Source: Candidatus Omnitrophota bacterium (GTDB lineage Bacteria > Omnitrophota > Gorgyraeia > Zapsychrales > JBAZNR01). Taken from it: DNA of 64,000 bases. The stretch spans positions 1,039,497 through 1,103,496 of the forward strand of contig JBAZNR010000001.1 in assembly GCA_041649175.1 (NCBI GenBank), in the 5' to 3' direction. The translations under genes and the position numbers were made by a program. How positions within the stretch are numbered: the stretch's first letter is position 1; every line of letters begins with the position of its first letter. Below the pieces are notes generated by a model. That model had not been told where the DNA came from. It did no database searches and saw nothing but the letters and a program-made list of their open reading frames with translations. Shown here one piece after another: positions 3,373 to 46,317 of the stretch.

Positions 3373-4635
3373 ATGGCAGATATCATTAAGCGCAAGGTGC
3401 AAGAACATCTTATTTCTAAGACTGATTTTTTGTCCGTTAAAGATAAGCTCAATGAGGATCAGCTGCGCGTTTTTGTTTTAAACGCCATTAATGAAGTATG
3501 CAAAAAAGAGGAAATGATCCTTACCGAAGACGAGCGTGTTTTACTGATCCGGGAATTGGTAAGCGCTGTTATCAGTTTTGGCCCTTTGCGTCCTTTGATG
3601 GAAGATAATTCTATTTCAGAGATCATGGTGAACGGCCCGCGCAAAATCTATATTCAGCGAAAAGGGCACATCGGGTTGGCGGATGCTCGCTTTGACGATG
3701 ACCGCCATCTTTTGCATACAATTCAAAAGATCTTGGCGATATCCGGTTCCGGGCGCCGCGTGGATGAGTCATCTCCGTATGTGGATTTTTCCTTAAGCGA
3801 TGGTTCTCGGGTCAATATTATTTTGCCGCCGGTTTCTTTATCGGGCCCGGTCATAACGATCCGAAAGTTTTCATCAGAGATCTCAAAGATAGAAGATCTT
3901 TTAGACCGTCAAATGCTCAATAAACAGATGGCCGAATTCTTGGTTGCGTCCATTAAGGCAAAGCTCAACATCGTTTTTTGCGGGGCAACGGGAACAGGTA
4001 AAACGACGACATTAAATGTTCTATCGCGGTATATTTCCGAAGACGAACGTGTGATCACTATTGAAGATACTGCTGAGCTTCAGCTTTTGCAGGAACATGT
4101 GGTAAAATTACAGTCTAAGCCGACTAATATTGAAGGCAAGGGGGCGATCAGCATTCGGGATCTTTTTATCAATTCGCTTCGTATGCGCCCGGACAGAATT
4201 ATTATTGGAGAAGTCCGCGGGTCAGAAGCGCTAGACCTTATTCAGGCGATCACCAGCGGGCACACGGGGTCACTCGCCATTGTTCACGCGGATTCTCCCC
4301 AGGACTGTTTTAATCGCATGGTAACGATGATCTTGATCTCCGGAATTCAGCTTAGCGTTGATGAGATCCGTAAACAAATCGCTTCGGCAGTTGATCTCTT
4401 TGTGCACACCGAATTATTTTTAGACGGAAAAAGAAGGATCACTCATATCACCGATACGCGTTATTTAGCCGGAGAAAATAAAGTTGTCCTGGAAGATGTT
4501 TTTCATTTTCGTCAGCAATCCATTGAATCCGACAATCGCATTATTGGTGATTGGGTGATGAACAAAAAGAAACCCTCTTTTTACGAGAAATTTGTTAAAA
4601 GAAATGTTAAACTTCCCGATGGGTTTTTCGAATAG
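3373..4635 (+). CDS. CpaF/TadA-family type II/IV secretion system ATPase (orphan)
   Basis: Walker A motif GATGTGKTTTLN, an IEDTAEL box and RMRPDRIIIGEVRG, which are hallmarks of CpaF/VirB11-type ATPases. A GGGGA RBS precedes the ATG. No pilus or tad partners are nearby. Confidence 0.85.
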   Translation: MADIIKRKVQEHLISKTDFLSVKDKLNEDQLRVFVLNAINEVCKKEEMILTEDERVLLIRELVSAVISFGPLRPLMEDNSISEIMVNGPRKIYIQRKGHIGLADARFDDDRHLLHTIQKILAISGSGRRVDESSPYVDFSLSDGSRVNIILPPVSLSGPVITIRKFSSEISKIEDLLDRQMLNKQMAEFLVASIKAKLNIVFCGATGTGKTTTLNVLSRYISEDERVITIEDTAELQLLQEHVVKLQSKPTNIEGKGAISIRDLFINSLRMRPDRIIIGEVRGSEALDLIQAITSGHTGSLAIVHADSPQDCFNRMVTMILISGIQLSVDEIRKQIASAVDLFVHTELFLDGKRRITHITDTRYLAGENKVVLEDVFHFRQQSIESDNRIIGDWVMNKKKPSFYEKFVKRNVKLPDGFFE

Positions 4636-38420: not shown

Positions 38421-38616
38421 AAGCCGATAAAGGTAAACCCGTTGAAAGACGGGGACGCAAAGCCTACAGACCTAATGTGTCGGATGCTCAAAGAGGCTCG
38501 CGGTGGTGCTGGCGGGCGACAAAAGCCGGGTACGGCTTATGGCTGACGACAAGATGGTGGCTGGGTTGCCGAAGTGACGCGGGAGCGATATCCCGATCTT
38601 TGTCGGCTTCTTTTTT
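38421..38616 (+). ncRNA. Candidate structured small RNA of ~195 nt, identity unassigned (possibly 6S-like or another trans-acting sRNA)
   Basis: GC-rich island (~58% GC) in an AT-rich intergenic region. A 14-bp closing helix joins 38421-38434 with 38596-38609 and ends in UUUUUU. Internal hairpins are recognisable: 38438-38453 with a GAAA tetraloop, 38523-38538 with a GGUA loop, and 38580-38595. The RNA has its own promoter and is followed by a second terminator hairpin. Confidence 0.55.
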
Positions 38617-38731: not shown

Positions 38732-38740
38732 TGGTATAAT
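38732..38740 (+). promoter_or_regulatory. Extended -10 promoter (TGGTATAAT) for the Zn-ribbon/M20 operon
   Basis: TGnTATAAT at 38732-38740. The first in-frame ATG lies at 38749, only ~8 nt downstream. This suggests a leaderless or near-leaderless mRNA. Confidence 0.5.
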
Positions 38741-38748
38741 TGTGCCCA

Positions 38749-39051
38749 ATGAATATCAAATTTTTAAGGGTTTTTAAACGCGTTGATGTCGACGATGTCA
38801 AGGGGCATCTATTGATCTGCGGAGACCTTTCGGCCAGCTGTTCGAAATGCGCGGCTGTAGGGATAAAACTTGATAGCAGCAAGTGCCCTGAATGCCAAAC
38901 AGATTTTCGTTATGTTACTTTCCGAAATATAAAAGAAAATATGCCTAAAGTTCAAAGGTTAAGCGAACCTCCATTGGCTTTGTCGGTCATTGATTTTGAT
39001 GATTATAAGAAAATTACCGGAGCGCAAAAAGCTGAGGATTTCTTTAGATGA
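38749..39051 (+). CDS. Small Cys4 zinc-ribbon protein of unknown function
   Basis: ~100 aa with CSKC...CPEC. Its stop overlaps the start of the M20 peptidase gene (ATGA). The six-frame ORF begins at TTG 38740, inside the -10 element, so ATG 38749 is preferred. Confidence 0.55.
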   Translation: MNIKFLRVFKRVDVDDVKGHLLICGDLSASCSKCAAVGIKLDSSKCPECQTDFRYVTFRNIKENMPKVQRLSEPPLALSVIDFDDYKKITGAQKAEDFFR

Positions 39052-40190
39052 TCAATAAAAAAAGATTAACGGCATTAACTCAAAAGCTGATCGGGATCAA
39101 TTCTGAAAATCCTCCGGGACGAGAATGGGACATAGCCGAATTTATCCGTAAAGATATGCTGTCTTTAGGGCTGGATGTTAAGACATATACATTCCAAAAG
39201 AAGCGGCCGAATATTGTGGCGACTTTGCGGGGCAAATTGCCCCGCAAAGTCGCCAGCTCTCAAGCTATCTTGCTTTCGCCGCATATTGATACGGTTCCGG
39301 CGGGCAAGGGTTGGCGATTTGGTCCGTTTTCCGGGAAAATCCACCAAGGGAAAATTTATGGGCGTGGGGCTAGCGATGATAAGGGTAATTTAGCTTGTTG
39401 CATGGAAGTTTTAAGAAGCTTGATGGAAGACGGTGTTTCTTTCCAGAAAGATATTATCATGGCCGCAACGGCGGATGAGGAAACGGGGAGCCATTTTGGC
39501 ATTGTGCCGCTTTTGGCTAAAAAGATCCTGAAGCCAAAAGCGGCACTCATCATGGATTCCGACGAATTTCATTCTATTATCGCGCAAAAAGGGCTTATCC
39601 ACTGCCGGGTTCAGATTTTTGGGAAAAAAGCTCATGGCGCTTATAACTGGCGCGGTATTAATGCCATTGAACAAGCCGGCCGCATAATCAATCAAATAAA
39701 ACAACATAAGTTTTCTTTTAAAAAACATACGCTTTTGCACGCGCCGACGGTCAATGTTGGGACGATCAAAGGCGGAGACAAAGTCAATATGGTCGCGGAT
39801 TTCTGCGAATTTTCTTTAGATTTTCGTTATTTACCCGGCACAGATCCAAAATCTGTTTTAAATATTCTTAAGAAAACCATTCGATCCGAGGCAAAGAAAT
39901 TCAAGATCATCATCGACGATCTTCAATATCCTTATGAGATTGATACTGATCATTCCCTGGTTAAAACTTTTTCTGCTACCTGTAAGAAAATGGGATTTAA
40001 ATCGCAACTAACTGGCAGTGAAGGCGCAACAGTCATTTCGTTCTTTAAGCGTTTTGGTATTCCGGCTATTGCAACAGGTTTTGCGGCGGAAGGCACAGCG
40101 CATATCACGGATGAATATGCGGTGGTGAACGATCTGTATCATGGCTCGCAAGTCTTAGAACAGTTTTTAAAGGACTATGACCAAATATGA
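39048..40190 (+). CDS. M20-family metallopeptidase (ArgE/DapE-like deacylase)
   Basis: HIDTVPAG and GASDDKGNLA metal-binding motifs. Length is 380 aa. Confidence 0.8.
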   Translation: MINKKRLTALTQKLIGINSENPPGREWDIAEFIRKDMLSLGLDVKTYTFQKKRPNIVATLRGKLPRKVASSQAILLSPHIDTVPAGKGWRFGPFSGKIHQGKIYGRGASDDKGNLACCMEVLRSLMEDGVSFQKDIIMAATADEETGSHFGIVPLLAKKILKPKAALIMDSDEFHSIIAQKGLIHCRVQIFGKKAHGAYNWRGINAIEQAGRIINQIKQHKFSFKKHTLLHAPTVNVGTIKGGDKVNMVADFCEFSLDFRYLPGTDPKSVLNILKKTIRSEAKKFKIIIDDLQYPYEIDTDHSLVKTFSATCKKMGFKSQLTGSEGATVISFFKRFGIPAIATGFAAEGTAHITDEYAVVNDLYHGSQVLEQFLKDYDQI

Positions 40191-44762: not shown

Positions 44763-45440
44763 ATGAAACGATTATTTCTGATTTTGATCACGATATTTCT
44801 GGTCAATTTTTTCATTAATCCGCAGGCTGGCCTTTACGCCCACGAAGAGGAAATCCAAACAACCAAAGAAGGCATTCAGTACGCTGTTCGTTTTCCGGAG
44901 AAATTTAAGGAAAGCGAGAGCTATCCGGTGCTTTTTTGTTTTCATCATCGCGGAGACGGTGTTGAAACAACCCGTATTTTCTCCTACGCGGCTTATAAGT
45001 TGAATTGGTTCATCGTAGGATTTAAAGATATTGTTTTTTCTGACCTGGATAAAGAAACCTGGCCCAAAGTGATCAAAGCCCAAGAATCCGTTTTGAAAGA
45101 TGTCCGAAATAAATATAATGTCCGCAATAACCGGCTTTATGCGGCAGGTTTCGCTAACGGAGCAACGATGGCCTATGATTTTGCTTATCGTCATCCGGAG
45201 AAGTTCAGGGCCATCATTGCTTTTGGCGGCGGCCTAGGATTGGATAAGCCCACATATTCGGTGGCGGTCTATCAGGCTGTCGGCGAAGATGATTTTAATT
45301 TAGACCAGGTTCAGCGCGCGGACAGCAAGTTAAAAGTTTTAGGAGTTAAGTCGCAGTTGCGTATTTTTAAAGGCGGCTATGGATGGCCGCCCGAAGAAAT
45401 CGTCAATGAAGCCCTTGAGTGGATCAGCCGGATAAAATAA
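44763..45440 (+). CDS. Secreted alpha/beta-hydrolase-fold protein (phospholipase/carboxylesterase-like) whose nucleophile elbow reads GFANG
   Basis: Signal peptide. The fold is similar to carboxylesterase/PHB-depolymerase-type esterases. Ser is replaced by Ala at the GxSxG position (AAGFANGATMA). Confidence 0.55.
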   Translation: MKRLFLILITIFLVNFFINPQAGLYAHEEEIQTTKEGIQYAVRFPEKFKESESYPVLFCFHHRGDGVETTRIFSYAAYKLNWFIVGFKDIVFSDLDKETWPKVIKAQESVLKDVRNKYNVRNNRLYAAGFANGATMAYDFAYRHPEKFRAIIAFGGGLGLDKPTYSVAVYQAVGEDDFNLDQVQRADSKLKVLGVKSQLRIFKGGYGWPPEEIVNEALEWISRIK

Positions 45441-45484
45441 TTTCGTATTTTGAATAAAAATCCAAATATTTACATACGAATATA

Positions 45485-45513
45485 TTGACAAAGAAATGAA
45501 TATCAGCTAGACT
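45485..45513 (+). promoter_or_regulatory. Consensus sigma70 promoter driving the 55-aa ORF
   Basis: TTGACA at 45485-45490, a 17-nt spacer, then TAGACT at 45508-45513. It is embedded in TATATTGACA, the same 10-mer seen at 53141-53150. Confidence 0.6.
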
Positions 45514-45635
45514 CTTATTTGTCTTTCGGTAAGTTTCCGGCAAGAAGGAGAATTGCGGATATGCCCTAAGATGAAGTAAACGGACTAATATATTCACGGT
45601 TAAGTTCAATCATCTAACCACAAGGAGAGAAACAG

Positions 45636-45803
45636 ATGCCAGAGTTAGAATTTTATGATGTGAAGTCCAAATCGAAATTTAAGTCGTCTGATTTCAAAGT
45701 AAGAGAAAAGAGCGGACGTTTCTTCGCCGTGACCAAAGCCAAAAGCGGCCCGCATGAATGCTGGCGTGTTTTGTCGAAAGACCAAGCAGCAAAATTGAAG
45801 TAA
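45636..45803 (+). CDS. Small basic (Lys-rich) hypothetical protein of 55 aa
   Basis: AAGGAGAGA RBS 7 nt upstream of the ATG. It has its own promoter, a ~115-nt leader and its own terminator. The sequence is MPELEFYDVKSKSKFKSSDFKVREKSGRFFAVTKAKSGPHECWRVLSKDQAAKLK. It is absent from the six-frame list because it is shorter than 60 aa. Confidence 0.6.
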   Translation: MPELEFYDVKSKSKFKSSDFKVREKSGRFFAVTKAKSGPHECWRVLSKDQAAKLK

Positions 45804-45877
45804 GGGTTCAGCAAGCCTCTTGTGTTTTTATGTCTCAAGGGCTTAAAATCTAAAACGGATTTGCGATTAAAGAAAAC

Positions 45878-45910
45878 CTTCTTTAGTAACTAAAGAAGAG
45901 TTTTCTTTTT
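45878..45910 (+). terminator. Rho-independent terminator after the 55-aa ORF
   Basis: 9-bp stem CTTCTTTAG / CTAAAGAAG with a TAA loop, followed by AGTTTTCTTTTTT. Confidence 0.7.
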
Positions 45911-46035
45911 TAAAAGAATTCATTTAAAAGGTTTATTCTGCCATTAAAAAAACTCGCGTAAACTTAACCTCTCGTAATTTAGCCAAATTAATCGCAGGAT
46001 TTGCGCTGGATACAAAAGCGGACGATATCCTTGTT

Positions 46036-46317
46036 TTGGATATGCGCAAGTCAGTTAATTTTTGTGATTATTTTGTTATTTGTTCTGCGACTTCCGATCG
46101 AAGAATTCGTGCCATTGCCAGTAGCATTGCTGATGAATTAGCCAAGTATGGCGTTAATGCAAGCTATCGGCCCGGCTTTGAAAGCCTCACATGGCTTTTA
46201 GTGGATACGGGGGATGTGGTGGTCCACATTTTTGAAACGAATGCGCGAGAATTCTACGGCCTCGAACATCTGTGGCAAGCGGCACCCAGGATCAATTGGA
46301 AAAATAAGTCCCGCTAA
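46036..46317 (+). CDS. rsfS: Ribosomal silencing factor RsfS (Iojap); the true start probably lies upstream at a non-canonical codon (ATT 45943)
   Basis: DYFVICSATSDRRIRAIA...GDVVVHIF...EFYGLEHLW is the RsfS core. The conserved N-terminal helix and beta-strand (NLAKLIAGFALDTKADDILVLD) are encoded in-frame upstream of the first canonical start, TTG 46036. No ATG, GTG or TTG occurs between the upstream stop at 45925-45927 and 46036. Confidence 0.8.
   Translation: MDMRKSVNFCDYFVICSATSDRRIRAIASSIADELAKYGVNASYRPGFESLTWLLVDTGDVVVHIFETNAREFYGLEHLWQAAPRINWKNKSR

Follow-up and report, generated by a model that had tools for sequence, protein, structure and literature searches.

In the genome of a Candidatus Omnitrophota bacterium (GenBank assembly GCA_041649175.1) we analyzed a 64-kb stretch of DNA (contig JBAZNR010000001.1, positions 1,039,497 to 1,103,496 of the forward strand; hereinafter the window), in which a small open reading frame (ORF) of 55 codons, located upstream of rsfS, proves to be a genuine protein-coding gene under strong purifying selection. 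We regard the chances as even that this is a monocistronic housekeeping gene whose small, basic product is abundant and binds nucleic acid, most likely as a nucleoid-associated (chromatin-architectural) protein (NAP) of a Cren7/Sul7d-like kind.

A conserved small protein of the Omnitrophota

The 55-aa sequence, an exact match of WC676_04550, recovered 719 clusters at E≤0.01 in a homology search of 5.8 billion proteins. In the best 120 of these 719 clusters the proteins are 75–91% identical to the query and 55–60 aa long, except for single sequences of 67 and 91 aa; the few homologues with names are called 'hypothetical protein' and come mainly from Candidatus Omnitrophota metagenome-assembled genomes. 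Using two narrow peptide patterns scanned over the GTDB species representatives, we confirmed 302 loci, so that at least 302 species-representative genomes encode the small protein; the Omnitrophota comprise roughly 700 species representatives (bioRxiv 10.64898/2026.06.07.730766). The initial annotation of this DNA, made from the letters alone, had left the coding status to conservation among relatives, and had held that broken reading frames within a conserved nucleotide sequence would mark a non-coding RNA. The relatives show the opposite: the frame is intact in 85 of 85 related loci examined, and variation is concentrated at third codon positions (entropies of 0.56, 0.38 and 1.42 at positions 1, 2 and 3, respectively, over 82 distinct nucleotide versions). 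In the same set, the pairwise proportion of synonymous differences (pS) is saturated at 0.89 and that of nonsynonymous differences (pN) is 0.18; together with the unbroken frame, these values establish the ORF as a genuine coding gene. Across Omnitrophota the small protein is 69–91% identical, whereas the products of the flanking genes (M16 peptidase, RsfS, ArgS and RecJ) in the same genomes are 43–69% identical to those of the window.

An exhaustive HMMER search of 1.84 billion representatives delineated a broader family of 74 clusters with the common motif FYDVKxKxKF...GRxFAV...G..ECWR. Within it F6 and F15 are invariant, D8, F30, A31 and V32 are nearly so, and a set of basic and aromatic positions is strongly kept (K10, K12, K14, Y/F20, K25, R28, K34, W43, R44 and K48). 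Pfam models gave no match to the query at E≤10 or to 60 family members at E≤1; scans of the query and these members against NCBIfam and PHROGs identified no family, and PDB sequence searches with both the single protein and a profile found no homologue, the sole match, LolA (E 1.3), being noise. Two further matches among the representatives were judged spurious by eye on account of ankyrin repeats (P0173) and low complexity (P0191). We also considered short gene-bearing contigs as potential transcript assemblies and set them aside, the one readable among them being labeled a metagenome scaffold. Our literature search found no paper describing this small-protein family, which by its sequence is new and, to judge from the predictions presented below, of a known functional kind.

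Predicted fold

The AlphaFold2 model of the small protein, built on a 60-sequence alignment (pLDDT 86.4, pTM 0.61), places strands at residues 4–8, 13–17, 21–25, 28–34 and 41–46, followed by a helix at 48–54. The model of a member only 35% identical to it (P0150; pLDDT 87.2) shows the same architecture. When both models were compared with 350,542 PDB chains by Foldseek, the E-values were not significant for either, as is usual for so small a domain; nevertheless, among the 50 matches listed, the top TM-scores for both belonged to Cren7-DNA complexes (E-values not significant). The closest of these, 4r55_A, reached TM-scores of 0.64/0.66 and 0.59/0.64 for the two models (root-mean-square deviation [rmsd] 2.1 Å over 47–49 columns), and another Cren7-DNA complex, 6a2i_A, gave 0.55/0.57. 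Scaffolds derived from Sul7d appear in both match lists, namely a Nanofitin (9qog_B, ranks 1 and 9), an Affitin (4cj2_C) and an Sso7d-based binder (5zau_B); 4cj2_C, 5zau_B and the sequence of Nanofitin C10 of entry 9qog (e.g., chain 9qog_A) could each be tied to Sso7d. Tudor and SH3 domains are also among the matches listed, while the cold-shock domain (CSD), CsrA, Hfq and ribosomal protein families do not figure in the top 50 Foldseek matches from the PDB. Accordingly, we predict an SH3-like five-stranded barrel with a C-terminal helix, nearest to Cren7 and Sul7d.

The model is matched more closely by small viral proteins of predicted structure in the BFVD database (TM up to 0.76, E 0.025) than by any chain of the PDB. 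The best is a Myoviridae protein named for a 'TFIIE alpha finger' (TM 0.76, rmsd 1.3 Å), a likeness seen in structure; four of the matches share the prefix A0A1X6W (A0A1X6WF81, WF93, WFK4 and WGD4) and may stem from one genome, and a Marseillevirus protein is likewise among the matches.

Domain fusions within the family include an SSB-like N-terminal domain joined to the family domain (P0171; phrog_18154, E 7.6e-7; a second phage SSB family, E 1.4e-5), transmembrane segments followed by a Lys-rich linker and the family domain (P0170), coiled coils with Lys-rich linkers (P0165, P0166, P0180 and P0190), and a TIR domain (P0188; E 1.4e-25). A homology search seeded with one of the coiled-coil fusions (P0165) returned only itself.

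Comparison with Cren7, Sul7d and bacterial nucleoid proteins

On the basis of the models, the small protein may be described as working like the Cren7/Sul7d type while being a member of neither family. Like Cren7, which is about 60 aa long, it is basic and conserved across a phylum-level lineage (Cren7: 64–98% identity, 70 clusters), and the models suggest an SH3-like five-stranded barrel as in Cren7 (best TM 0.59–0.66). Cren7 has also been found fused to a CdvA-like coiled coil (PMC5906684), paralleling the coiled-coil fusions in relatives of our protein. The modeled fit to Cren7 is at least as close as the accepted relation of Cren7 to Sac7d, for which an rmsd of 2.6 Å over 44 residues has been reported (PMC2275093). 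Differences are equally apparent: Cren7 has a long flexible β3-β4 loop and no C-terminal helix (PMC2275093), whereas both models here have the helix at 48–54 and a β3-β4 turn of 2 residues. In this regard, the best-matching chain, 4r55_A, is a 55-residue 'GR' mutant of Cren7, five residues shorter than the wild type; given this length and the loop mutants reported in PMC5906684, we take it to be a loop-shortened, Sul7d-like variant, and such a shortening fits the 2-residue turn of the models. Furthermore, Cren7 is confined to Crenarchaeota and Bathyarchaeota and a zinc-ribbon ancestry has been proposed for it (PMC5906684), while the present family occurs in Omnitrophota and DPANN-like (ultra-small) archaea and has no Cys pairs hinting at such an origin.

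The order of elements recorded for Sac7d, a β-hairpin and a three-stranded sheet with a short β3-β4 hinge followed by a C-terminal helix (PMC2275093), recurs together with the short hinge in both models. The similarity to Sul7d extends to a size of about 7 kDa and richness in Lys; the TM-scores to Sul7d scaffolds, however, are only 0.41–0.48, and Sul7d is restricted to Sulfolobales (PMC2275093). The Sulfolobales are thermophiles, in contrast to the groundwater, sediment and lake metagenomes from which the present family was recovered. Among bacterial proteins, HU/IHF and the bacterial histones of PMC11390915 offer another comparison, in that they too are small, basic, conserved within lineages and encoded in single-gene units with strong promoters; NAP genes typically form single-gene operons (PMC11390915). 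The predicted β-barrel is distinct from both the HU fold and the histone fold. Features by which a NAP is operationally recognized are present at the locus, namely a product of 6.38 kDa with a computed isoelectric point (pI) of 9.87, its own near-consensus promoter, and a terminator in the window.

Several observations weigh against a Cren7/Sul7d-like nucleoid role. Profile alignment with hhalign gave probabilities of just 0.1–0.2% against Cren7, both as a single sequence and as a 28-sequence profile, and 0.3% against Sso7d, with the Cren7 and Sso7d reference sequences verified against PDB chains (Sso7d: 1bnz_A); the Pfam models for Cren7 (PF11520) and Sul7d (PF02294) matched neither the query nor the 60 members. 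The fusion proteins are mostly singleton metagenome clusters and carry modest weight. SH3-like barrels also bind RNA and peptides. Finally, the Omnitrophota encode IHF-like proteins as well (PMC11390915), and hence the niche is not an empty one.

The locus and its promoter

The initial annotation had depicted the region as an independent transcription unit in which strong signals serve the expression of a small protein. This picture has held up, and the recurrence of these signals at orthologous loci sets them far above chance. The elements, including those it had listed as promoter, leader of about 115 nt, Shine-Dalgarno (SD) site, ORF and terminator with a 9-pair stem, were located in the window as follows:

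45485–45490, + strand: −35 hexamer TTGACA; the same hexamer stands 17 nt from a TAnA[CA]T −10 in 58 of 80 related loci
45508–45513, + strand: −10 hexamer TAGACT, separated from the −35 by a 17-nt spacer; the consensus over the 58 loci is TAgACT
45520–45635, + strand: 5′ leader of ~115 nt, its predicted start near 45520 being placed from the promoter
45544–45552, + strand: internal SD-like element GAAGGAGAA, inside the leader
45561–45569, + strand: mini-ORF ATG CCC TAA (MP*, 2 codons), 3′ of the internal SD-like element
45571–45579, + strand: mini-ORF ATG AAG TAA (MK*, 2 codons), 3′ of the internal SD-like element
45622–45630, + strand: SD sequence AAGGAGAGA, its GGAG 8 nt ahead of the ATG of the small gene
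45636–45803, + strand: coding sequence for 55 aa plus stop, MPELEFYDVKSKSKFKSSDFKVREKSGRFFAVTKAKSGPHECWRVLSKDQAAKLK
45870–45911, + strand: terminator-like hairpin with a core stem at 45878–45898 (9 pairs) and a T-run at 45901–45911; −16.7 kcal/mol for the extended hairpin

An A-run upstream of the hairpin permits it to be read as a terminator on both strands. The 55-aa protein has a net charge of about +6.6 and, as initially noted, a single Cys (C42) and a single Trp (W43), while its computed pI falls short of the value above 10 that had been anticipated. Similarly, the region had been said to lack any ORF of 60 aa or longer, yet two 61-aa ORFs with TTG starts exist on the minus strand (45424–45609 and 45653–45838); nothing supports either. 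The small gene is single-copy within the window.

The promoter is the most distinctive of these signals. The motif TTGACA-N17-TAnACT occurs once in the window as against 0.01 sites expected by chance, and the looser TTGACA-N17-TAnnnT likewise occurs once, at the same place (0.40 expected). A version of it, TTGACA-17-TA[G/A/C]A[C/A]T, precedes the gene in the 58 loci mentioned above; conversely, in 438,676 bp of related loci searched on both strands, all 58 sites matching TTGACA-N17-TAnA[CA]T lie upstream of the small gene, 57 of them within 300 nt and the remaining one, in L014, at 440 nt. The consensus of the 58 loci further includes a T-rich tract ahead of the −35 (ttTTTTnAa), which is missing from the window's own upstream sequence, and a conserved stretch in the spacer (..taTc.g.). 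In a second bacterial lineage (L059, L069, L070 and L073), where the gene adjoins nth, it is driven by an extended −10, TGGTATAAT. AGGAG or GGAGG lies 5–10 nt ahead of the ATG in nearly all orthologous loci. Taken at face value, these signals suggest high expression of the small gene. For Ca. Velamenicoccus archaeovorus, transcript (TPM) and protein (riBAQ) values have been published gene by gene, in tables that give no annotation (PMC12583861).

The third and fifth bases of the −10 (the G and C of TAgACT) depart from consensus and are retained in dozens of genomes that have diverged to saturation at silent sites, as are the G at −14 and the T-tract upstream of the −35. Their retention may reflect either what the housekeeping sigma factor of the Omnitrophota prefers or a second binding site that overlaps the promoter.

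A proposed nucleic-acid-binding role and the alternative of an RNA-binding or ribosome-associated protein

Among the roles offered by the initial annotation, that of a small nucleic-acid-binding protein appears to be the best, considering the basic composition, the predicted SH3-like barrel, and the fusions to an SSB-like domain and to Lys-rich linkers. The mechanism that we propose for it runs as follows. The housekeeping sigma factor (assumed to be of the sigma-70 type) would act at the near-consensus promoter to yield an mRNA of ~390 nt ending at the hairpin near 45900, a step that draws on the sequence and on promoter conservation. The strong SD would then direct translation of the 6.4-kDa protein with a charge of about +6.6, for which coding is shown by codon-level conservation. 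This would fold into a five-stranded SH3-like barrel capped by the C-terminal helix, as predicted by AlphaFold with good confidence for two members, and Y7, K10, K12, K14, Y/F20, K25, R28, K34, W43, R44 and K48 would contact nucleic acid, probably a DNA duplex, irrespective of its sequence. We infer DNA binding and an architectural role.

The best-surviving alternative, which we consider unlikely, is a small RNA-binding or ribosome-associated protein (an RNA chaperone or translation factor) for which the proximity to rsfS and argS would be functional. Both of these genes, previously identified as neighbors, were indeed found downstream along with recJ, whereas an M16 peptidase gene and trpBA lie upstream; the whole corresponds to a block conserved in Omnitrophota, trpB-trpA-M16 peptidase-X-rsfS-argS-recJ, where X is the small gene. 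In 61 of 79 loci rsfS directly follows X, an arrangement that favors a tie to translation, as do the position of the archaeal fusion member P0170 between the genes for aIF1A and ribosomal S8e and a cspA-like ORF directly upstream of the homologue in L083. SH3-like barrels are, moreover, common in ribosomal and RNA-binding proteins, and the order of five strands and a C-terminal helix may, at the level of secondary structure, resemble that of CsrA. On the other hand, X is preceded by a promoter of its own and is followed, in the window, by a separate terminator, and the syntenic block also takes in trpBA, the M16 peptidase and recJ. Because the block thus mixes unrelated functions and X lies behind a separate promoter, the adjacency to rsfS and argS constitutes weak functional evidence, and the link to ribosome and translation genes raised in the initial annotation is correspondingly weak; in other lineages the gene is instead placed beside unrelated neighbors (nth, Metallophos genes, CTP synthase and integrases). 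No ribosomal, CSD, CsrA or Hfq model from Pfam or NCBIfam matched the query or any of the 60 members. Lastly, a partner specific to the bacterial ribosome would not be expected at 70–87% identity in archaea, and the presence of the family in both domains fits a generic nucleic-acid binder better than a ribosome partner of one domain.

Archaeal homologues, mobile elements and the spread of the family

Eight loci labeled archaeal have neither the block synteny nor the bacterial promoter. Five of the eight instead have an A[AG]CTT[TA]A[TA]A[TA] box (of the AAGCTTTATAAA type) located 72–102 nt ahead of the codon for the conserved Phe (residue 6), and this box is found in 0 of the 72 other loci; it looks like an archaeal BRE/TATA promoter element. 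The archaeal-labeled proteins are 70–87% identical to the nearest syntenic Omnitrophota protein, which lies inside the spread within Omnitrophota itself (mean 76%, minimum 60%) and hence speaks for transfer between the domains rather than for descent from an ancient common ancestor. The divergent member P0170, flanked as noted by aIF1A and S8e, is in an unambiguously archaeal context. In the Woesearchaeota-labeled L083, the cspA-like ORF preceding the homologue (2693–2875) is 50% identical to CspA of E. coli along 64 aa (E 1.5e-12); it was the only hit of tblastn searches for HU and CspA over the window and related loci, a sample too small to judge an absence of HU.

Divergent copies (L093 and L095) stand beside Phage_integrase, Rep_1 and DNA-methylase genes, and one among the 2.9 million viral contigs of IMG/VR has a copy (L092, UViG_3300031566_010600, 4001–4165) that is 69% identical, directly follows another ORF and is without its own promoter. 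Because of these associations, mobile elements are a possible vehicle for the cross-domain spread. They also bear on a second alternative, that the protein is a sequence-specific regulator or a factor derived from mobile elements (e.g., a DNA-binding accessory protein spread by viruses or plasmids). Such a role would agree with the integrase, Rep_1 and methylase neighbors, the viral copy, the member fused to a TIR domain (E 1.4e-25) and the small viral proteins that are the best BFVD structural neighbors (TM up to 0.76, E 0.025), as well as with the need for a vehicle in cross-domain spread. It is nonetheless improbable. In the Omnitrophota core the gene resides on the chromosome in a syntenic position, it is present once in the window, and its conservation exceeds that of argS and recJ; just 1 of the 2.9 million viral contigs has it, and its near-consensus promoter looks constitutive and shows no obvious operator.

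Returning to a nucleic-acid binder of the Cren7/Sul7d kind, we propose from the sequences that the family has spread between Omnitrophota and small archaea, acquiring in each a strong promoter of the type of the host domain. Cross-domain transfer of chromatin proteins has precedents. The exchange with DPANN-type archaea possibly took place via mobile elements or through epibiotic or predatory contact. The single described Omnitrophota species is reported to attach to archaea and lyse them.

The leader, its internal SD-like element and the terminator

The −10 and the ATG are 33–50 nt apart in most orthologues and 64–259 nt apart in a minority that includes the window, and a leader of ~115 nt is specific to the window's clade; thus, the long leader put forward initially does not extend to the family. 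Folding of the window's leader, as the initial annotation had envisaged, yields a minimum free energy of −21.3 kcal/mol compared to a mean of −22.0 for shuffled sequences (z 0.22), which is no better than the latter. With Rfam 15, all matches in 45380–46000 (leader, ORF and 3′ region) are far below the gathering threshold, and the only gathering-level match in the window is a c-di-GMP-I riboswitch located elsewhere.

The internal SD-like element has a phylogenetic distribution of its own: of 18 long leaders, 11 have AAGGAGGTG or GAGGAGGTG at the corresponding position, among them those of all loci in the clade nearest to the window, and none of 45 short leaders does. In the leaders of relatives (L001, L006, L007, L009, L010, L011 and L014), no start codon follows AAGGAGGTG. 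We take this to recall the STAB-SD type of 5′ mRNA stabilizer known from the Bacillus cryIIIA literature, or else a ribosome standby site, in that an SD-like sequence complementary to the 16S rRNA 3′ end sits in a leader without a start codon at initiation distance. By this analogy the element could be an mRNA stabilizer or a standby site; unlike STAB-SD, it is confined to the clade nearest the window, and the copy in the window itself is a weaker one (GAAGGAGAA) that precedes the 2-codon mini-ORFs. In L014 the leader is expanded by GC-rich palindromic repeats (e.g., cccccccaccgctttgcttcgcaaagcgaagcagtggggggg), resembling the insertion of a small repeat element.

The suggestion that the transcript serves chiefly as an RNA (non-coding or dual-function), its leader being regulatory, is largely refuted and very improbable, for although the leader is ~115 nt long and its SD-like element is conserved in the clade without a start codon after it (AAGGAGGTG in relatives), leader length and sequence are unconserved (33–50 nt in most orthologues), there is no thermodynamic signal (z 0.22) or Rfam match, and conservation is concentrated in the protein, with the frame intact in all 85 loci and third codon positions free. 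As for the dedicated terminator, it stands in the window, where the 9-pair stem and T-run are present, but a conserved intrinsic terminator was rejected as a feature of the family, since it is convincing in only a few orthologous loci.

Other features of the neighborhood

A 225-aa ORF with a hydrophobic N-terminal segment (44763–45440, +) lies between the M16 peptidase gene and the small gene. Among the 80 loci compared, the window shares it with L026 alone (43% identity), marking an insertion into the conserved block; as a guess, its product is a secreted esterase-type protein. In rsfS (45928–46317, +) the conserved N-terminal part (SRNLAKLIAGFALDTKADDILVLDM) is encoded from 45928, while no ATG, GTG or TTG occurs in frame before the TTG at 46036; a non-canonical start codon is probable, for instance the ATT at 45943, ~30 nt past the terminator of the small gene. 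Gene calls for rsfS are 90 aa (shortened) in L001–L003 and 126 aa in L004. The c-di-GMP-I riboswitch (RF01051) is at 38422–38573 (+) and scores 59.4 bits (gathering score 35). About 170 nt downstream of it lies a Cys-rich, zinc-ribbon-like ORF of 103 aa (38740–39051) that overlaps the start of a 380-aa ORF (39048–40190), whose product looks by sequence like an M20/ArgE-type peptidase.

Implications for the Omnitrophota and for chromatin proteins

The Omnitrophota are a widespread phylum of ultra-small bacteria, some of them predatory, of which almost none has been cultured. The small protein described here is among their most conserved proteins, and yet it is unannotated and outside Pfam and NCBIfam, its 55 residues making it easily missed by gene callers. 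Its conserved promoter provides a first empirical picture of a strong Omnitrophota promoter, consisting of a T-tract, TTGACA, a 17-nt spacer with G at −14, and TAGACT. As a broader and more tentative proposal, doubtful in our own estimation, the protein would be the founding member of a cross-domain family of ~6–7 kDa SH3-like chromatin proteins, serving as the main small protein that coats the chromosome of Omnitrophota, a bacterial counterpart of Cren7 and Sul7d, and repeatedly exchanged with DPANN archaea under near-consensus promoters of the host type. Should it be a Cren7/Sul7d-like DNA binder, chromatin proteins with a β-barrel directed at the minor groove would no longer be a crenarchaeal peculiarity, and the family would clearly exemplify an exchange of chromatin proteins between the bacterial and archaeal domains. 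It could also provide an alternative from non-thermophiles to the Sso7d scaffold used for polymerase improvement and for building binders.

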